Position numbers and translations under genes: made by a program
Assembly: GCF_963921235.1 (NCBI RefSeq)
Contig: NC_086108.1
Span: 27,282,001 to 27,346,000, forward strand
Direction of reading: 5' to 3'
Length of the DNA: 64,000 nt
From: Mobula hypostoma
Lineage: Eukaryota
The notes under the pieces: model-generated
Seen by the model: only the letters and a program-made list of their open reading frames with translations
The model's database searches: none
Told to the model about the DNA's origin: nothing
Shown: piece after piece, positions 4,763 through 42,549 of the stretch
Numbering within the stretch: position 1 is the stretch's first letter
Layout of the letters: every line of letters begins with the position of its first letter

Positions 4763-6876
4763 CTGTAGGTAAGCAGGCGACCTATGAGAAGTATATAAAA
4801 TTACGACAGGCATGGGCAGAACAGCAGTCAGTTTGTTTTGAAGGGTAGAGATGTCACTCAGTATATTACTAGAGTAAATACACCTGAGGCAACCAAGGTA
4901 ATGTTTAAAAGTAATGTGTGGGAAAGACCATTACTATAGAGTACAGGTGCCTGGAACAGGCTGCTAGGGTTTATATGGGAAGCAGATACAACAGTAACAT
5001 TTAAGAGGCTTTTAGCTATGCACATGAATATACTGGGAATTGAGGGGTATGATTCATGTACAGGCAGAAGGGATTTAGTTTAATTTGACATAGTGTTCAG
5101 TGCAGCCATTGTGGACAAAGGGCCTTTTCCCATGCTGTCTGCTCTACAGTATGTTGTACATTAAGCACATTATTGGCAACATGATCCCCAATAGGCCATG
5201 CACATGGAACTCTGTAAGTAACTTCTATATTAATCACATAGCTGGTGTGAGTAACTTGTCCACAAAACAGAACATAGAATCTCTTTTGCATTTGACATTT
5301 CACATTGTCTAGTGATTCTACACCAGGGTCTTCACTCTGTGCTTCTAAAGCAAAAAAAGAAGTAAATTTTCACATTTGGATAATACAACCATTGCTGGTA
5401 GAATATCAGGTGGTGACGAGAGGGTGTACACTAGTGAGATATGCCAACTAGTGGAGTAGTGTCACAGCAACAACCTGGCACTCAACGTCGTTATGACGAA
5501 AGAGCTGATTGTGGACTTCAGTAAGGGTAAGAAGAAGGAACACATGCCAATCCTCATAGAGGATCAGAGATGGAGAGCCTGAGCAGTTTCAAGTTCCTGG
5601 ATGTCAGATCTCTGAGGATCAAACCTGGTCCCAACAAATCAATGTAGTTAAAAAGAAGGCAAGAAACATATGTAGCCCCCTGGTAAGCCTTAGGCTCGCT
5701 CAACTCGCTTTCGTCTAGGGGGAGCAGCCTTCGGCCCTGCCAAACTGGGTAATCAGTTTGTGTGGATGCTGTGTGACGTACCCCACCCCGCCAAATAGCA
5801 TACAATATACCATATGCAATTAAATGATTACACTTTATCGATCTTACTGGAACTATGTCATTAATAGAGATAAAATATAAGGTGCCAAACTTATCAAAGT
5901 TCAACCACTTCGTGCACAACAGTTGGAGCTCAATTAACGGAGTCTTCTTTCCACCATTCGATCCCCTCCGACCTCTCGACCCGCCAACTGGGACCAACCA
6001 TGGTGGTCAACCAGACACTCCACACGAGTCAGTCTTCATCTCCTCTCCTCACCGAAGATCCTGGACCTCAGACTCCTGTTCAGGGTGGGTCCTGTCGCCC
6101 AGCTTACAGCATTGCGTCTCCTCACTCTGTCCCCATCTGCCTTCTGCCCAAAAACCCCGTGAAACAATAGCTCACAGACACGCGAGAAAGAATAACATCT
6201 GTCCCAATTGGTTCGTTCTCTCTCTTATCAATAATATAAACCAAACAAGCAGAGAGAGAGAGAACGCCTTACATCGAGGTGATTATTACAGAAAAGCCAT
6301 TTTAATTATAACATAACAAAGAAGCCATTTTGTTAGCCTTCACAGTAACATAAAAGAAGAAACCCCTTAGACTCTCCACCCACCAAATGTAGTCATGTCC
6401 TCATGACTTCTAAATAACTCGCAAACCAGTCCTGCAGACACAAAAACCCAATCCAGGTACACATGGTGACATTGCTCCCCAAACAGTAGACCTTACACCC
6501 AGTCCCAAGAGCGCTACATAGGCCAACCTATCTGGGAGTTTCCTAATCCTCCAAGACCTCCATACCCCCTCAACTAAACCCTTTAGGCTCGAACACTACT
6601 GGGGATACCACGGGTCTGCTTGCCAACTCCTCTCTCAATCTCTCACTCATGCCCCCACTGCATTTCGGAGCCCCCTGTCCCATGTCCGAGGCCCTGTTTC
6701 TTTTCCTTCAGGGTCCTGCTGTAACCCAGGCTGCCCACAGCTAGCCCTCCCTACTACACCTGACTCAGTGGGAGAAGGGCCAAAAGTCTCTTCCTCAATC
6801 ACGGGGAAGTTAGCGAAAGGCAGCATGTACCACACATCCCGCACATCATCCTCTGAAGCTATATTCTTCCTCATTC

Positions 6877-6998
6877 CCTCGATCAGTAGCTGCTGTTTGA
6901 TTTTCTCCAAACTGAAGCACTTAGGCTGGGCTGCTTCTGCAGCCTCTTCAGCTTCCTGCAGTCGAGACGTCAGCTTCTTCTCTGACTCCTCCAACTCT
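6877..6998 (-). other. Myosin heavy chain tail-like fragment inside the LTR element
   Basis: [40 protein letters not shown] resembles sarcomeric myosin [40 protein letters not shown] (recalled from memory). Confidence 0.8.
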
Positions 6999-7669
6999 CG
7001 CCCCAGACTCAGCAGTTCTGACCCATGCTTCATGTCCATCTCCATCTGGGATGCAATTACCCCACCAGCTTCTTCCAATCTTTTCTGGATCGATTTCTTG
7101 AGTTTCTGCTGATCCTTTCGAAGGCTGGTCATTGTTTCGCCTCTCTGGATTAATTCATCAGTAGGTGACCACAGTTTCGGATTGGAATTATGTTTCCCTA
7201 TCTCCACTTTGATCATCATGAACTCCAATTCTCCAATGGTTGTCTGGGACTCCGGCACTCACCTCACATCATCGTCCCCCAAGGCGAATCCAAACCCTAG
7301 GTGATCATCCACATACGCCAAAACTCCAAACACCTCCACATCCCCCATGGTCCTCCTCATGCCCCGCGGGAAGGTTGCAGGGGCTCTGGATATGCCTTGT
7401 GGCATCTTTACCGATTGGAAGAATCCTAGGGGACCTATAACGGCTGTCTTCTCCTTGTCGGCCTCACTCATCGGGATCTGGCAACATCCATTCCTCAGAT
7501 CCAGCACATTAAACCACGTCGCACCACACAAACAGACCATAGCGTCTTCGGTCCTCAGGACCGTATTCTGTTCAATGACAGTGCGCCTGTCCAGGGTCCT
7601 ATAATCCACAGACACGCTGCCTACATCTTCCACGGCTGCAGGGTCCACTCACCTCGACCTCTCTCTTAC

Positions 7670-7812
7670 CGACACTCACAACACGAAGGGTTGACGAAGG
7701 ATTCCGCCCCGAAACGTCGACCGATCTTTTCCACGGATGCTGCCCGACCTGCTGAGTTCCTCCAGCATGTTGTGAGTGTTGCTTTGACCCCAGCATCTGC
7801 AGATTATTTTGA
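7670..7812 (+). mobile_element. Penelope-like element end inside the Gypsy pol region
   Basis: tgacgaagg...cgaaacgtcgac...gatgctgcccgacctgctg...agcatctgcaga; same motif family as 36861 and 58337. Confidence 0.65.
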
Positions 7813-10667
7813 ATTTAGCTCTCTCACTGAGTTGTCTTCAGCAGTCAACTCCCCTCCCTCGTGGTATTTCGGAGCATCTACTAAGAGCGTCTCACCCTCA
7901 GATACTTCCCCCAGGCCGTACCACAATCAGCTCTCATTTAAATTCGGTACCGGCCCAACGCTGCTACACATGTCCTCACAAGCGGCTTGAAACACCGGGT
8001 GCATAGACAATGCCCCCATGAACTCCAGTGTCACTGACCAATAATCATCTTCTGGATAATCACTGGCACTGGTACACCAAATCTCCAGTGCCCTTAAGGT
8101 TGTCAAGGGTAAATGCTTCAGAAACCAGTTGTAAAACGAACTGTACAACAACTTGACCTGCGCCCTGGTGTCGAGGATGTCTTTAGCATAGCTTCCATCT
8201 ATCCGTAATGACACACGGGGGCGTGGTCCCTCTAAGCCTTCAGGAATAGGGTCTTTTCCTTTCAGAAATTCCTTGATACATTGCTGGGAACGTGCTCCCC
8301 CAGAGACCCCAAGCTGTTCCCCCACTGGGCCTCCACTAAGTTTCCTGATACCTTTCTGATCAGCTGAACAACTGAGGGAGGCGCTGATCCCCTTAAAACA
8401 TCCCCCTGGCACTGCAAGCAATTTAGCTGCCCTCCTAGCCAGAGAAGATACACTGAAAGCTTTTCCCAATCTCCTGACACAGGTATGGAAAGCCCCCCCA
8501 GGAGCTACATTTTACTTCCAGTCGAACCAGATGCATTTTCCCCCACTTTCAGATAACTGGCAGCTGTCACTACAGTTCTAACACCGTCAACAGCCCACCT
8601 TCTCAAACTTTCAACCAATCCCTATCGCTCTCCCTCAACCAAGCACTGAGAGATCCACTCCGCCCACGTCTCGTACGCCTCCGCCCCTTTAGGGGTGGAC
8701 AATATCCCAAAAGCCAGGCGGAGCCTGCCATAGCTGGAACATTTATTCGCAGATACTACCTCCGAATCAGACCACTCTTTCCTCTCTCTCTCAACAGTAT
8801 AGACAGCCCACGGTCCCGCCTCACCCAACACGCATGCAGTAATAACCAGCAATCCCACAGAAACACACATTACCAACCGCAATCCCACAGAGACACAGCA
8901 GCACTGATTTAAACAGGCCAATCACACAGCGCACCACTGAATCCAATTTCTGACACAGCCCCCAATGTAGCCCCTGGTAAGCCTCAGGCTCGCTCAACTC
9001 ACTTTCGTCTAGAGCGAGCAGCCTTCGGCCCTGTCAAACTGGGTAATCAAGTTTGTGTGGATGCTGTGTGATGTACTCCACCCCGCCAAATAACAGACAA
9101 TACACCATATGCGATTAAATGATTACACTTTATCGATCTTACTGGAACTATGTCATTAATAGAGATAAAATATAAAAGGAAAATAAAAGGTGCCAAACTT
9201 ATCAAAGTTCAACCACTTCATTAGGAGTTTTAAGAGAGTCTATAGATGTACTGTGGAAAGCATTCTGACAGGATGCATCACTGTCAGCCTGTCAGAATGC
9301 TCTCCAGTATGGGGAGAGAGGGCACTGCACAGGACCAAAAGAAGCTGCAGAGGGTTGTAAATCTAGTCAGCTCTATCTTGGGTACTAGCCTACAAAGTAC
9401 CCAGGACATCTTCAGGGAGCAGTGTCTCAGAAAGGCAGCATCCATTATTAAGGACCTCCAGCACCCAGGGCATGCCCTTTTCTCACTGCTACCATCAGGT
9501 AGGAGGTACAGAAGCCTGAAGGTACACACTCAGCGATTCAGGAACAGCTTCTTCCCCTCTACCATTCAATTCCTAAATGGACATTGAATCCTTGGACACT
9601 ATCTCCTTTTTTTAATATACAGTATTTCTGAGTTTTGCACGTTTTTTAATCTATTCAATATACGTATACTGTAATTGATTGATTGATTGATTGTTTTTTT
9701 TCGCTTCTACATTATGTATTGCATTGAACTGCTGCTGTTAAGTTAACAAATTGCATGTCACATGCCAGTGATAATAAACCTGATTCTGATTCTGATTCAT
9801 AAGCACCTTCTGCCCTATGAAGTTTATTCACTGTTTCATTGTAGGATATGCAAGAGTACGTAGCAAGATCTTACATTGTGATACAGTTTAGGTAGCATTG
9901 GATGAGGGGTGTTTCAAATGCACTTTGATACCTCACATGGTCTTTTTCAAACCTTGTCTTCCCTCCAGGTGCACCAGGATTTTTGTGAGCACCTGGAGGG
10001 AAGACAAGGTCACCTCTGACAGTGCTGCACATATGTTGCATGAGCTCAGATCATATACACAAGTGTTGGAGGGCATCATCTCAGCTAAGAATGTGGTACA
10101 GTGCTAAGAAAGGCTGGCACTGTAGAGGATTAATCAGGAGAAACATTCTGACAAACTGTCCACAACTTGGTCCAGATCAAACTATTAAACACTTTCCCTC
10201 ATTGTTCTCTTTGAGGAGTGCTGTAGGAAGACTACTAGAGGGTCCACTAAGAAGCCAGGCCGATTATTCATGCACTGTGGAGGCATGAAGTCTGAGACTA
10301 GCTGAGGAAATCCTATATTGAGCATTGTAGGAATCCTCAGAGTTGCAACAAGATTCTATCTGATTCTTCTATATTCAGGCTTCTAAATTCAATTTCTCTT
10401 CACACATTAAGCCTCCTGCGTCCTGAAACCACCATGGAACATCTTGAAAGCATTCCCTCTGTGGAAAGGATACTCTTTTTTAACAGGGTAGACCAAAAAT
10501 GTCTGAAATACTACAAATATGATCACACCAGAGCCCTATATAATTAAAATAAGACATCCTTACACCTGTAGGAAAAAGTTGCAATAAAAACCAACATACC
10601 ATTTACCTTCTGGACTCCTCTTCAATTGTGCTCTATTTCAGAATTCCTATGTGTGTTTGTAGATCAC

Positions 10668-21775: not shown

Positions 21776-24700
21776 TCACCATGTATATATGTTGTAACTC
21801 GGTTACCCGTCTGGACACACCCCTCTGCTGACTGCCCCTGTGGCTCCTCCCACAGAGTCCTGTATAAAGGTGTTTGCCTTGCCCCTCCCCCTCAGTCTGG
21901 GGGCAGACACTCACTGTGGAGGTCGTATTGTACAGCGAATAAAAGCCTATCAGTATTTTACCAAACCTCAGTCTTTTGGAGTAATTGAAGGTGCTTCAAT
22001 TTTATTCGCTGTACGTTTTAAAACATGGAACAGTCCCTGAGACCAGAAAAATTAGACCTCGATCCACAAATGCCTGAAGCTGGAAACGCTTTCGAACTCT
22101 GACTGGCCTGCTTTGAAGTGTATCTAGAGGAGATTAAAGTGACCGACCCCGTAGCGAAGCACAGAGTTCTACTCTCCAGGGTCAGTCCACGGGTCTATCC
22201 GCTGATCAGAGACCAGCCGAACTACGACGGCGCGATGAACGCACTCAAAAGACAATACCTGCGGCCGATAAACAGCGTCTATGCTTGGCATCGCTTAGCG
22301 ACACGGCAACAACGGTCCGGGGAATCAAGTGCTGAGTTTGTCCGGGCCCTAAAGACACTCGTGCGAGCCTGCAATTGCCAGGAGCTGACGGTGGCGCAGC
22401 ATGCAGAACTCCTAGTGAGAGACGCCTTCGTCACGGGGACCAGGTCAGTGTACGTGCGCCAGCGGCTGCTGGAAAAAGCCGATCTTACCCTAAGTTCGGC
22501 GATTGAGCTGGCTGATACGTTGGAGGCCGCTCTGCATAACTCCGAGGCTCTCCAGGCATGCGATCCCCCGATGGCCTCGTGGGCGCCGCAGACCCCGCAA
22601 CCCGCCGGCGAATCGACCTCGGCTGCAGCCAGTTGTGAGTCTGCGAAGTGCTACTTCTGTGGACTGGAGAAGCACGCCCGGAAACGCTGCGCGGCCCAAC
22701 AAGCTACCTGTTCCAGCTGCGGAAAGAAGGGCCACCGCCAAGGTCTGTAAGTCAAAACTGCGAGCGGGATCGAGCAGCGCCACGTGCGAGACGCGGGGGT
22801 TGCCAACTTCCCTGCACACTGCCACCATGTGCGAGACATGGGGGCCGCCATCTTCCCTGCACGCTGCCACCACGTGCGAGACATGGGGGCGGCCATCTTG
22901 GTCGGTGCCACCTCCCACTGCCTACGACCAACGGGTGCTCACGGGCCACCCCACCGTGCCGGACCAAGCCAGCGACCCCACCCTGGCTTCCATGACCCTC
23001 GACCAAAGCGCTCCCCATCAGCTCGCAAGGTCAATGATGGACATCCTGGTGAAGGGGCACAGGACAAGCTGCCTGTTTGACACAGGCAGCACGGAGAGTT
23101 TTATCCACCCGGACACGGTGCAGCATTGTGGACTCATGATACGGCCGGTAAGTCAGAGGGTCACCATGGCCTCCGGGTTGCATACAACAGACATCCGGTG
23201 GGGTTGTGTAGCGACGCTAGTGGTGCAGGGCACAGAATATCGGAACTTTAAGTTACTGGTCTTGCCTCAACTGTGTGCCCCTGTGCTGTTGGGGTTGGAC
23301 TTCCAGAGCCACCTGAAAAGTGTGACAATGAAGTATGATGGGCCCCTCCCACCAATTACTGTCATAATTCCCCTGTTTTGTAGAGATATGTCACGTACCC
23401 CGCTACTGACCACACACACACACCGACCCGCACATCCCACCCAACATCATGCCAACTGCCACACTACCAACACCACTTGCGGCCTCTCCACCCTCAGGAT
23501 CCCTCCCCCACCGCTGTTCGCCAACCTGACCCCCGACTGTAAACCTGTGGCAACTAAAAGCAGGAGGTACAGCGCGGGGGACAGAGCTTTCATTAAGTCG
23601 GAGGTGCAGCGGCTGCTCAGGGAGGGGGTCATTGAAGCAAGCACAAGTCCTTGGAGGGCGCAGGTGGTGGTTGTTCGGAACGGGGAGAAGAATAGGATGG
23701 TCGTGGACTGTAGCCAGACCATCAATAGGTTCACGCAGCTCGACGCGTACCCTCTACCCCGCATCGCGGATATGGTCAATCAGATAGCACAGTACAAGGT
23801 GTACTCGACCATAGACCTAAAATCCGCTTACCATCAGCTCCCCATCCACCGGGAGGACCGCCCTTACACTGCCTTCGAGGCGAACGGCAGGCTTTATCAA
23901 TTCCTGTGCGTCCCCTTTGGTGTCACGAATGGTGTATCTGTCTTCCAGAGGGCAATGGACCGGATGGTGGACCAGTGCCAACTGAAGGCCACGTTCCCAT
24001 ATCTGGATAACATCACCATCTGCGGTCACGACCAGGAGGATCACGACAACAACCTCCAAAAATTTCTCCAAGCGGCCAAATCTTTCAACCTCACCTATAA
24101 CAAGGACAAGTGTGTATTTGGGACCACCCGACTTGCTATCCTTGGGTGTGTCATGGAGAATGGAGTCATTGGCCCTGACCCCGACCGTATGTGCCTCCTG
24201 TTGGAACTCCTTCCCAACACACTCAGAGCCCTCAAAAGGTGCCTGGGCTTCTTTTCATATTACGCCCAATGGGTCTATAACTATGCAGACAAGGCCCGAC
24301 CCCTGGTCAAGTCCACCACATTCTCCCTCTCTGCCGAGGCCCACGCGGCCTTCAACCGCATAAAAGGGGACATTGCCAAAGCAGCAATGCATGCGGTGGA
24401 TGAGGCCATTCCCTTCCAAGTGGAGAGTGACGCCTCCGACTTTGCGCTGGCTGCTACCCTCAACCAGGCAGGAAGACCAGTGGCGTTCTACTCCCGTACC
24501 CTTCAAGGCCCTGAAATTCGGCACTCTGCGCTAGAGAAAGAGGCCCAGGCCATAGTGGAAGCTATAAGGCACTGGAGGCACTATCTTGCCGGCAAAAGGT
24601 TCACCCTGCTAACTGACCAGCGCTCAGTCGCATTCATGTTTAATAATCAGCAGCGGAGCAAAATCAAAAATGATAAAATTCTGAGGTGGAGAATCGAACT

Positions 24701-26240
24701 CTCCACCTACAACTATGACATCATGTACAGGCCTGGGAAGCTCAACGAGCCCTCCGATGCCCTATCCCGGGGAACATGCGCCAGCGCGCAGATCGACTGG
24801 CTATACACCCTACATGTAGACCTTTGCCACCCGGGAGTCACCCGGCTTTTCCACTTCGTGAAAGCCCAGAACCTGCCTTACTCCCTTGAGGAGATCAGGA
24901 TGATGACCAGGGACTGCCAAGTCTGCGCAGAGTGCAAACCGCACTTCTACCGACCCGAAAAGGCACCACTCATCAAGGCCACCCGCCCCTTTGAGTGACT
25001 GAGTGTTGACTTTAAGGGCCCCCTTCCCTCCACCGACTGCAATGTGTACTTTCTTAACATAATTGACGAGTACTCGCGGTTCCCCTTCGCCATCCCCTGC
25101 CCCGACACCACTACCACGTCAGTTATAAAAGCCCTGCGCAAGCTCTTCACTCTGTTCGGATACCCATGCTATATCCACAGTGACAGAGGGTCCTCGTTTA
25201 TGAGTGACGAGCTGCGCCAGTACCTACTGGCTAGGGGAATTGCAACCCAGTAGGACCACGAGCTATAATCCCCGGGGGAATGGACAGGTAGAGAAGGAGA
25301 ATACCACGGTGTGGAAAGCCACACTCTTAGCCCTCAGGTCAAAGGGACTGCTGGTCTCCCGCTGGCAGGAGGTCCTTCCCGAGGCACTCCACTCCATCCG
25401 CTCCCTGTTATGCACAGCCACCAATGCCACCCCTCATGAGCGGCTCTTTTCATTTCCCAGAAAGTCGACCACTGGGACCACCCTACCAACTTGGCTGACA
25501 TCCCTGGGGCCAGTGCTGCTCTGGAAACATGCGAGGAGCAATAAATACTCCCCGATGATCGTGAGGGTTCACTTACTTCATGCGAACCCCCAGTATGCCT
25601 ATGCAGTTTTACCTGATGGGCGGGAGGACACGGTCTCCATCCGCGACCTGGCGCCCGCAGGAGCTCCGGGCCCCTACCCTGAACACTCCGTAGTGACTAT
25701 TGACCCCGTACCCACCAATGTATGTACCTACGAGACACCGTGCACCCCAAACCCTATACAGACACCACACGACACTCCCATACCGGGCGCGACGCACACG
25801 CACGAGGGATTACCGACGCCTAACGTGCTGGTACCTGAAGTCAGGCCGGAGCCAGCACAACCGCCATCACCGGTGCAATCACCGCCAGTGCTACGTAGAT
25901 CACAGCGACGGACTCGACCGCCTGACAGACTTGACCTGTAAATATACTTCTTGTAAATATTGTCAGTCACTTCACCCCGCGGGACTCTTTTTTAAAAAAA
26001 GGAGGGGTGAATGTGGTAAACCATATATATATGTTGTAACTCGGTTACCTGTCTGGACACACCCCTCTGCTGACTGCCCCTGTGGCTCCTCCCACAGAGT
26101 CCTGTATAAAGGTGTTCGCCTTGCCCCTCCCCCTCAGTCCGGGGGCAGACAGTCACTGTGGAGGTCGTATTGTACAGAGAATAAAAGCCTTTCAGTATTT
26201 TACCAAACCTCAGTCTTTTGGAGTAATTGAAGGTGCTTCA
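21776..26240 (+). mobile_element. Near full-length Ty3/Gypsy LTR retrotransposon
   Basis: LTRs 21776-21998 and 26012-26240 (about 8 differences by eye); 5-bp TSD ATAAT; PPT 25994-26011; gag-PR-RT-RH-IN order. Confidence 0.97.
22025..25941 (+). pseudogene. Disrupted gag-pol polyprotein of the Gypsy element
   Basis: ATG 22025; stop near 22100; CSSCGKKGH/AKVC knuckle with frameshift near 22737; LFDTGS; YLDN; ESDAS; HPG..C..C; stop at 24996; VDFKGP, IDEYSR, HSDRG; frameshift near 25245. Confidence 0.93.
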
Positions 26241-39452: not shown

Positions 39453-40517
39453 AGAAACATAGAAACATAGAAACATAGAAAATAGGTGCAGGAGTAGGCC
39501 ATTCGGCCCTTCGAGCCTGCACCGCCATTTATTATGATCATGGCTGATCATCCAACTCAGAACCCCGCCCCAGCCTTCCCTCCATACCCCCTGACCCCCG
39601 TAGCCACAAGGGCCATATCTAACTCCCTCGTAAATATAGCCAATGAACTGGCCTCAACAGTTTCCTATGGCAGAGAATTCCACAGATTCACCACTCTCTG
39701 TGTGAAGAAGTTTTTCCTAATCTCGGTCCTAAAAGGCTTCCCCTCTATCCTCAAACTGTGACCCCTCGTTCTGGACTTCCCCAACATCGGGAACAATCTT
39801 CCTGCATCTAGCCTGTCCAATCCCTTTAGGATCTTATACGTTTCAATCAGATCCCCCCTCAATCTTCTAAATTCCAACGAGTACAAGCCCAATTCATCCA
39901 GTCTTTCTTCATATGAAAGTCCTGCCATCCCAGGAATCAATCTGGTGAATCTTCTTTGTACTCCCTCTATGGCAAAGATGTCTTTCCTCAGATTAGGGGA
40001 CCAAAACTGCACACAATACTCCAGGTGTGGTCTCACCAAGGCCTTGTACAACTGCAGTAGTACCTCCCTGCTCCTGTACTCGAATCCTCTTGCTATAAAT
40101 GCCAGCATACCATTCGCCTTTTTCACCGCCTGCTGTACCTGCATGCCCACTTTCAATGACTGGTGTATAATGACACCCAGGTCTTGTTGCACCTCCCCTT
40201 TTCCTAATCGGCCACCATTCAGATAATAATCTGTTTTCCTATTTTTGCCACCAAAGTGGATAACTTCACATTTATCCACATTAAATTGCATCTGCCATGA
40301 ATTTGCCCACTCACCCAACCTATCCAAGTCACCCTGCATCCTCTCAGCATCCTCCTCACTGCTAACACTGCCGCCCAGCTTCGTGTCATCTGCAAACTTG
40401 GAGATGCTGCATTTAATTCCCTCATCCAAGTCATTAATATACATTGTAAACAACTGGGGTCCCAGCACTGAGCCTTGCGGTACCCCACTAGTCACCGCCT
40501 GCCATTCAGAAAAGGAA
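39453..40517 (-). mobile_element. Young 5'-truncated CR1 LINE inside an older LINE remnant (about 38400-40830)
   Basis: Open 276-aa frame GVPQGSVLGP, SKFADD, LVRPHLEYCVQFWSP, QRVVNLWNSLP; (ATGTTTCT)n tail. Confidence 0.95.
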
Positions 40518-42549
40518 AGCTAGATGCATACTTTACACTAAGGAAGTGCTAGTAATTGTTTGAGGTTAGAACATCCCAGCGTTCCTCAGGATAATACTCT
40601 AGACCTGAGCATCTTCAGTTGCATCATCGATCTTCTTCTGTCATGTAGTCAGAAAAGGGCATCTTAGATACATGGTATTCAGTTTTACTGATTGCTCTTA
40701 AAAAAATGAAATAGTCCGTGATTACTGGCAGCATGACCCAGGAAACAGGCAAACATGGGATGATGTAGGGAGTACTCTTTGCATCACAAAAATGCCAAGC
40801 AATGACTTTCTCCTGCAAAACAGCTTAAATACTAATATGGCATTAAATCACAAGTTTTCTTGTAAAAATGTGCATAATTTATGCTTATGTGTGTGTGAAT
40901 GCTGCATATCTGATGCTATGTGCCGGTGATTCGGCTGCAGGCATTTTTAATTGAACCGGTGCCTACGTACTTGCACATATGACAATAAACTCGACATTGG
41001 CTTTTGAGTTTGACAATGTTTCTTACCATCAACGTCCCAGGAGTTATCTCTGGTGTCCATATCTGGAAAAAGCAAAGCAAAATTTAAATCTTTTCAATGA
41101 CACATTTGACGGGGGGTTTACATCTGTCAAAAGAGAGTGTATTTGCTATTCAAGGACTGAACAACTGATTTATAGATAAATTCTGTGTTGAGAATAAATG
41201 TCTTTACAGCTGTGACATTTTGAAGAGAACACTGCAGTCTGTAATCTTACTCCACCAGATTTTCAGGAGGAGTGGCACAGAAATGGTTAAAATAATCAAC
41301 AATGGGTTTGACACCATGGCCCAAATGTTGTTTTGACAGTTTAGGTGTAACAACTTTCCTCCAGTAATTTGAAGCTAGGCTTAAATCAAAAACAGGAAAA
41401 GTAAAGGCCCCTAACAGCCCAAAGTAAAATAAATCCAAACTTACAATGCACTCCCTGAAGTGCTGGGTGAAATGTACAATGAGTAACTGTGATGGAAAAC
41501 TAAATAAATTGACAGGACAGAATGGTTAATATTCCAAGGGTCTTGTGCATAATGCTAGGATAGCAGAATATTTATGCCACTCAAAGTAGCCGCTTAGTCC
41601 ATCAATATTATGCTGGTTTCCAGTTGAGTAAATGCTTCATTTTCATTTCTTTCCTTATAACCTTATAATGGTGGAGTAGACTCATTGAGTGGAATGGCCT
41701 AATTCTGCTCCTATATCTTATGGTCTAGTCTTGCAAATGATTTTCCTTCTGTTCCCTATTGAAGGCACTAGCTGGTCTTGTTTCTATCAACCTTGCAGAG
41801 TGTAAATTCTAGATCATAATTGTACTCATTTTGTTTTCGCCCAAAACTTTAAATTCCTGGTCCTTATGCCATCTGGCACTGGGAACATTTCGCACATACT
41901 TATGTAGCTTAAACCAATCACGATCTTGCACACTTCCACTAAACCTCTGCAGGAGACCATTCTTGCCTAACATTATAACTGAAATGCTCATTAACTGGAA
42001 GTGCTCTAGTAAAGCTCTTCTGAACCCTTTCTGAAATCTGGCAAGCAGAGTTGGATGCAACATTCATCTAATCAGCAAAAGTAAAAAATCCTTTCAACAA
42101 TCAAGAAATTGGTGAAACAACAGAAGGAAACAAATTAGTGGTGAGAAACTGAAAGAACACTCCAAGCTAGTAGTTAGTGACAGGTAAAATTAGTTGAATG
42201 GAGTTTATCAAAGCAAGGCATATTCTGTTCTCCTAGGATAACATAGGTATTCTTAAAGGTGAAGCTGGTTATGACTATTGTTCATACTCAACTCACAGAG
42301 GGTGGATCATATTTAGTTGGCTGTGGAGGCTAGATTATTTAAAGAGAAAATAGATAAGCATTTGAATAATCAGGGAATTGAGAATGGTGAGGAACTGGCA
42401 CAGAAGGAAAGGGGACCAGGTGGATCAGCCTTTATCAAATTAATGAAGGGACAAGTGACCTAATCCTGCTCCTACTTTCTTGCATTCTTATGTAGTACAT
42501 AAACTTTAAATGTTGAAAAGCAATAAAAGGAAATGCAGTGGGTAGTAAA

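Follow-up and report, generated by a model that had tools for sequence, protein, structure and literature searches.

The window (the whole 64 kb stretch of DNA that was analysed) contains a decayed copy of an LTR retrotransposon on the minus strand, which extends from a truncated 5′ LTR (8966–9219) to a 702 bp 3′ LTR (5671–6372). The Ty3/Gypsy features comprise LTRs with TG...CA ends, a primer site, a polypurine tract and a short target duplication, the last of which was read in other copies. RNase H and integrase are both missing from the window copy. In the integrase-bearing relative L193, which is 70–74% identical to the window element, the pol order RT–RNase H–integrase was confirmed by Pfam, and the gag of a relative matches the Pfam family PNMA (E = 2e-28). 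Pfam searches of the gag remnant (8234–8921) and of the protease-region remnant (7930–8511) of the window copy gave no domain match. The stretch at 8950–8965 presumably resembles a tRNA-Pro primer site. The element is composed of the following features, numbered as in the window.

5671–6372, minus strand: 3′ LTR of about 702 bp, a direct repeat with 8966–9219; length from the LTR pairs of other copies.
6373–6386, minus strand: polypurine tract directly before the 3′ LTR, from the sequence.
6647–6649, minus strand: family-wide stop closing the pol-remnant frame, a stop in 36 of the 37 copies covering the site.
6650–6876, minus strand: C-terminal tail of Gypsy pol, with the last ~16 codons in a family-wide shifted register (from the alignment).
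6877–6997, minus strand: myosin piece 3, the end of host exon 14682903–14683096 and exon 14707345–14707477 (G000:C68); 87% over 121 nt, crossing a 24.2 kb intron.
6986–7081, minus strand: myosin piece 2, parts of host exons 14663723–14663809 and 14666491–14666736; 89% over 96 nt, crossing a 2.7 kb intron.
7071–7244, minus strand: myosin piece 1, the end of host exon 14524969–14525196, the whole of 14564082–14564186 and the start of 14583580–14583666; 85% over 174 nt.
7259–7648, minus strand: RT fragment to just past YVDD (Pfam RVT_1, E = 1.6e-9), sharing its register with the myosin frame.
7673–7830, no strand assigned: 158 bp insertion of another repeat, private to the window copy; missing in the aligned copies and matching many unrelated places.
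7930–8511, minus strand: pol protease-region remnant, an open reading frame resembling the protease-region frames of integrase-bearing relatives.
8234–8921, minus strand: gag remnant, in a register without a family-wide stop from 8921 to 8234.
8950–8965, minus strand: primer-binding-site-like stretch after the 5′ LTR, from its position and conservation among copies.
8966–9219, minus strand: 5′ LTR remnant, 90% identical to the 3′ LTR over 255 columns, with the outer ~450 bp gone.

The minus-strand frame 6647–7258 is open over 203 codons, as originally described, and lies one stop after the RT fragment in the identical register. The RT fragment stops shortly past YVDD, where RT had been said to break off, and the stop that ends the RT fragment (7259–7648) is missing from 15 of the 19 set-A copies. 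A resemblance to sarcomeric myosin had been proposed for about 40 residues; the myosin origin is borne out, whereas the extent is greater, as about 123 of the 203 codons (6877–7244) derive from a host MYH16-like gene in three ungapped pieces with DNA identities of 85–89%. A phmmer search of the PDB matched three separate stretches of the MYH7 rod (about residues 951–1003, 1133–1181 and 1385–1422) with a best E value of 7e-9 which, together with the identity to host exon DNA, takes the similarity beyond that of a generic coiled coil. Pfam detected no myosin family in the 203-residue frame, the pieces being too short. When compared with host MYH sequence, the segment 6877–6997 aligns at 87% over 121 nt to exons of the gene on C68. 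Pieces 1 and 2 overlap by an 11 nt microhomology and pieces 2 and 3 by a 12 nt near-match.

Piece 1 crosses host introns of 38.9 and 19.4 kb, and in all four host exon junctions are crossed without introns in the window copy (38.9, 19.4, 2.7 and 24.2 kb). At each of these junctions the 15 nt flanks match the exon at 11–15 of 15 positions, compared with 2–6 of 15 for the intron. Because four exon junctions are crossed intron-free, the sequence was likely captured from a spliced host mRNA. The intron proposed at ELEESK/KKL is present in the donor, with a length of 24,248 bp, and corresponds to the fourth junction; here, just five diagnostic bases of the upstream exon are available in the window copy, three of which match, and all five are present in nine of 11 longer variants. 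The fusion to the C-terminal tail of pol is likewise real, with the C-terminal 76 residues of the frame matching the post-integrase tail of the integrase-bearing L193 (52% over 42 residues, E = 1e-7); the DNA of the tail (6650–6876) is 73% identical to an integrase-bearing relative.

The donor was sought by locating the myosin genes of the genome and comparing their exon DNA with the captured pieces. It is a plus-strand gene at G000:C68:14.48–14.74 Mb (14,480,496–14,735,000; loci L068–L071, L078–L088, L098–L112 and L263–L282), consecutive exons of which match at 86–88% DNA identity. The fast-skeletal cluster, the C2 and C40 genes and the C36 MYH16 ortholog were rejected as donors, with identities of at most ~86% over short or 69–79% over longer stretches, compared with three consecutive exons at 86–88% at C68:14.6 Mb. 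In a tree of 206 rod positions the donor groups with MYH16 (support 100), and an extra rod intron is common to both. Its sister is a 915-residue tail-only Scleropages protein, P0010 (support 98), and this pair is sister to MYH16 proper (MYH16 is a subject of the review PMC6402096). The donor thus fails as a MYH16 ortholog, being a separate sister paralog with no motor exons found in the 218 kb upstream; the MYH16 ortholog sits on C36. The first recognizable donor exon starts at the head–rod boundary. Four myosin heads used as queries detected no motor exons in the 218 kb upstream, while giving 16–18 matches on the C36 MYH16 control, and a Pfam head search listed no myosin head upstream of the donor. 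The gene may therefore be an apparently motor-less MYH16 paralog, or may have a head that is more distant or unassembled. About 8 kb upstream of the first recognizable donor exon, the segment G000:C68:14,471,860–14,472,375 is 67–77% similar to the flanking (LTR-side) sequence of the long variants. Elsewhere in the genome, long uninterrupted Myosin_tail_1 matches with stops occur at L021–L025 and L032 (C18:48.7 Mb, C50:30.7 Mb, C184, C157, C21:138.7 Mb and C12:197 Mb); these are probably processed pseudogenes of other myosins, and their sequences do not match the captured pieces.

The window copy is one member of a large family. Database searches gave first-look candidates, which are not copy counts and were verified among the scored matches only: 1,506 for a 551 nt query (the best 40 were scored, all 40 being near full length and the 39 others being at 89–92%), 1,681 for a protease-region query (among 29 other loci examined, the frame is whole in 25, partial in one and missing from three) and 552 for a query with a host exon that is missing from the window copy. 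The last set represents longer variants, in which the myosin reaches about 1 kb; one of them, L122, holds pieces of ten host exons spanning about 180 kb of host DNA. The copies analysed are the best-scoring matches and not a random draw. Altogether, the chimeric family probably has more than 1,000 copies. Dispersed copies with identical junctions and 4 bp target duplications show that the element went on retrotransposing in non-autonomous form. Exact 4 bp duplications could be read in five of nine short-family copies and in L202 and L206, and the LTR-pair K2P distances of the nine short-family copies are 0.069–0.139. LTR pairs are kept in the copies (the 5′ LTR being truncated in the window copy) and there is no poly(A) at the myosin insert. 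Proteins containing the chimera are in the databases for Mobula hypostoma, M. birostris and Hypanus sabinus, and contigs from four further organisms bridge the myosin–tail joint, which places the host among the myliobatiform rays. Contigs of four sequencing runs, the RNA origin of which is a guess and which neither show nor refute transcription of the window copy, hold pieces of the chimera. Judged by sequence, the family is a non-autonomous Gypsy group that appears to be abundant in rays.

In the longest variants RNase H is still present, and the myosin begins right behind it, where 10/11 nt match the beginning of a host exon. Their 3′ capture end has a near-match similar to the microhomology at the 5′ end, and the myosin took the place of about 60 nt only. 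With four exon junctions crossed and microhomology at both capture ends, the proposal that host mRNA was captured by template switching stands. It had also been supposed that the myosin directly replaced RNase H and integrase, and this part is not supported: the longest variants keep RNase H, and their 3′ junction carries the joint left by a deletion in a myosin-free relative that lacks integrase. Of 30 loci retrieved with an RNase H piece, five have myosin and 25 do not; in seven of the latter the pol tail follows the post-RNase H segment directly, whereas the majority of the others continue into integrase. Since the 3′ junction of the myosin variants reproduces this integrase-less, myosin-free joint, which the integrase-bearing L192 does not have, integrase was lost before the myosin entered. 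The 5′ myosin joint of the window copy is a later deletion and not the original capture point. Loci L169, L171, L172, L179–L181 and L186 form an integrase-less, myosin-free non-autonomous family, which is the likely acceptor of the capture.

The following order of events would account for these structures. The first step would have been an in-frame deletion that took the integrase region out of an integrase-bearing element, giving the state seen in the relatives. RT would then have switched just after RNase H onto a myosin mRNA and returned ~60 nt further on, at the junctions observed. Helper elements may have mobilized the chimera in trans, as suggested by the target-site duplications and the missing integrase. 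Nested microhomology deletions, which are visible among the variants, would have stripped RNase H and most of the myosin to give the window subfamily. RNAs with early stops or frameshifts would have spread poorly, either because they decayed or because translation influenced packaging in cis, as the deficit of stops described below suggests. Each copy would have decayed neutrally once inserted, as is observed.

Of 19 copies selected through the myosin region, the 203-codon frame is open in three, and of 25 full copies selected through the protease region, it is open in two; after dropping seven loci found twice, the count is four of 37 other copies. In the myosin part, which was covered sufficiently in 38 of 42 copies, rare alleles comprise 186 nonsynonymous and 74 synonymous changes (pN/pS of 1.02), with 13 stops compared with 14.3 expected. 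The window copy is 14.8% diverged from the host and the other copies are 13.9% diverged on average. Because the frame is open in just four of the 37 others and rare mutations are neutral, its openness in the window copy is due to chance. Taken literally, the contrast between an open frame and a decayed gag and pol holds for this copy, but the gag and pol breaks are private to it and do not indicate selective keeping, against which the family gag and pol frames, equally free of family-wide stops, also speak. A dN/dS test of the chimeric frame, which had been suggested, gave no sign of purifying selection on amino acids (pN/pS of 1.02 for rare and 0.97 for shared changes).

The history of the propagating lineage was read from changes common to the family. 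No family-wide stop occurs in the gag register (8921–8234) or in the RT–myosin–tail register (7648–6650). Compared with nine longer variants, there are 147 common changes in 517 codons (104 nonsynonymous and 43 synonymous, pN/pS of 0.97), with no stops compared with 6.46 expected; five control frames have 28 stop gains compared with 27 expected, one antisense control being low (1 versus 4.6). A CpG-aware simulation of the stop deficit gave P = 0.0005, with P ≤ 0.02 in all nine settings (three outgroups and three thresholds). Among 128 polarizable differences, 88 are assigned to the short lineage and 35 to the long, and majority-stop codons are found in none of three outgroup sets. The myosin part alone has no stops compared with 1.4 expected, which is not significant, and the signal requires pooling of all frames. 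The length is divisible by three in all seven large myosin deletions common to the copies and in those gag and pol deletions that could be resolved. Deletion frames were scored against stop-free frames, decayed integrase-bearing copies being confounded as a reference by private indels, and three deletions were left uncertain where the reference is itself shifted. Because the microhomologies of this coding sequence tend to be in frame from the outset (54–78%, and 4/4 at ≥11 nt), the in-frame deletions are weaker evidence than they look. There is also a family-wide +1 shift near the end of the pol tail and a 2 nt deletion common to two long copies. Since amino-acid changes are neutral, yet stops number 0 compared with ~6.5 expected (28 versus 27 in the controls), the propagating lineage probably needed readable gag and pol frames and not a myosin protein. 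We infer selection for readable RNA, which may have acted by escape from decay or by cis-coupled packaging.

With a probability of about 0.75, we consider the window element to be a decayed non-autonomous Gypsy copy, the ancestor of which acquired spliced MYH16-like rod exons, likely by two template switches, and the spreading lineage of which was likely kept translatable, although not for a useful protein. That this LTR lineage was long selected for stop-free gag and pol frames whatever their amino acids, with the captured mRNA as in-frame filler, with only in-frame deletions spreading and with an apparently motor-less MYH16 paralog as the donor, seems to us fairly probable. It is unlikely that the same capture and spread took place with the myosin and the open frames as inert cargo, the lack of stops being luck along a few masters and the in-frame deletions reflecting microhomology bias. 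The pN/pS values near 1 everywhere, the in-frame bias of the microhomologies, the family-wide shift in the pol tail and the sufficiency of few masters for many copies all suit such a history, but it conflicts with the absence of stops from 147–166 common changes for three different outgroups (4–6.5 expected), with control frames that behave as expected and with the lack of any majority-stop codon in the three outgroup sets.

We give very little weight to an RT–myosin–tail fusion protein that serves the element, for example through a coiled coil aiding entry into virus-like particles, or to a co-opted chimeric gene at this locus. The window frame is open, the myosin pieces retain their native frame, some copies are modelled as genes by NCBI and pN/pS in the myosin part is 0.83 when polarized and 0.67 versus the host; however, neither ratio departs demonstrably from neutral (common versus rare, Fisher p = 0.17), and the variants delete different and even non-overlapping parts of the rod. 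The small number of other copies with an open frame (four of 37), the ordinary divergence of the window copy (14.8%, against a mean of 13.9%) and the private breaks that cut its frame off from the upstream frames also argue against such a function. Retrovirus-style capture, in which an element in a myosin intron gave read-through RNA that was spliced into the exon, with one recombination closing the 3′ end, would fit a 5′ capture point at the start of a host exon but is scarcely credible, as the element has no in-register splice donor there, the 10/11 nt microhomology accounts for the joint and the blast matches include no close family copy in that intron.

The preferred reading, template-switch capture followed by spread in a translatable state, has precedents. 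In the LTR-mediated retrocopies, or pseudo-LTR retrotransposons, of animals (Tan et al., 2016, PMC5131818), a partial intronless mRNA takes the place of some of the internal frames while both LTRs remain, short microsimilarity marks the two switch points, and retrotransposition then continues. The ray family has an intronless partial mRNA, both LTRs and a replaced part of the internal frames, shows microsimilarity at both switch points (the longest variants compared with the myosin-free relatives) and continued to retrotranspose after the capture. Every feature of this class that was tested is present in the ray chimera, and the mechanism of capture is already known (PMC5131818). In contrast to the cases described in the accessible part of that paper, which are young and occupy one or a few insertion sites, the ray family is old (LTR-pair K2P of 0.07–0.14), probably exceeds 1,000 copies and is common to several ray species with nested deletion subfamilies. 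Maize Bs1 and human HERV-K/FAM8A1, as cited in the same paper (PMC5131818), likewise have host mRNA inside an LTR element and differ in element class and host. The ray family is less usual in its scale and its frame keeping. Among vertebrate cases in which an LTR element captured an mRNA, its size and age are unusual, and the surviving intermediates are good enough to put the events in order.

The original study on mouse IAP 1-delta-1 is reportedly that of Saito et al. in 2008. This non-autonomous element has an in-frame deletion, and its gag–pol fusion is reported to act in cis and to aid retrotransposition (PMC6466679 and PMC10924933). As in IAP 1-delta-1 (PMC6466679), the propagating ray lineage is non-autonomous and kept an in-frame fusion. 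IAP 1-delta-1 is, unlike the ray family, an endogenous retrovirus without captured host exons, with an effect that was reportedly demonstrated experimentally, whereas the ray evidence is evolutionary, with drifting amino acids. By analogy, frame keeping in rays may work like the cis action of IAP 1-delta-1, without membership of that retroviral family. A stop deficit without amino-acid conservation makes the long-suspected need of defective retroelements for translation in cis testable from sequence and, if selection for stop-free frames is the correct explanation, translation-dependent propagation is recorded in more than 1,000 fossil copies. A literature search of listings and abstract openings, with most subscription papers and supplements outside its scope, found no description of the ray family or of a motor-less MYH16 paralog.

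Ray annotations contain false gene models for myosin and MYH16 that the family explains, and through the family a myosin-rod gene comes to light that is possibly without a motor. In the NCBI annotations of Mobula and Hypanus, copies (P0015–P0025) bear the names MYH16, myosin-7B-like or cardiac myosin. Element sequence is also included in two Hypanus models, SDHAF3 isoform X1 and TMEM192 isoform X1, through either annotation error or exonization. P0025 is a 729-residue Hypanus model in which a single frame runs through gag, protease, RT, an RNase H remnant, myosin and the tail; its deletions are a different set, and it may be an independent case bearing on frame keeping.

Elsewhere in the window, LINE-like fragments are located at 5400–5670, 9220–9590, 841–1185 and 39668–40519. 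The element appears to have been inserted inside one such fragment (5400–5670 and 9220–9590), with the outer 5′ LTR deleted later; we take the flanking fragments to belong to the LINE class. A second, GC-rich LTR-retrotransposon-like region on the plus strand (22103–25938) contains gag-like, 834-codon and integrase-like frames, as read by eye.
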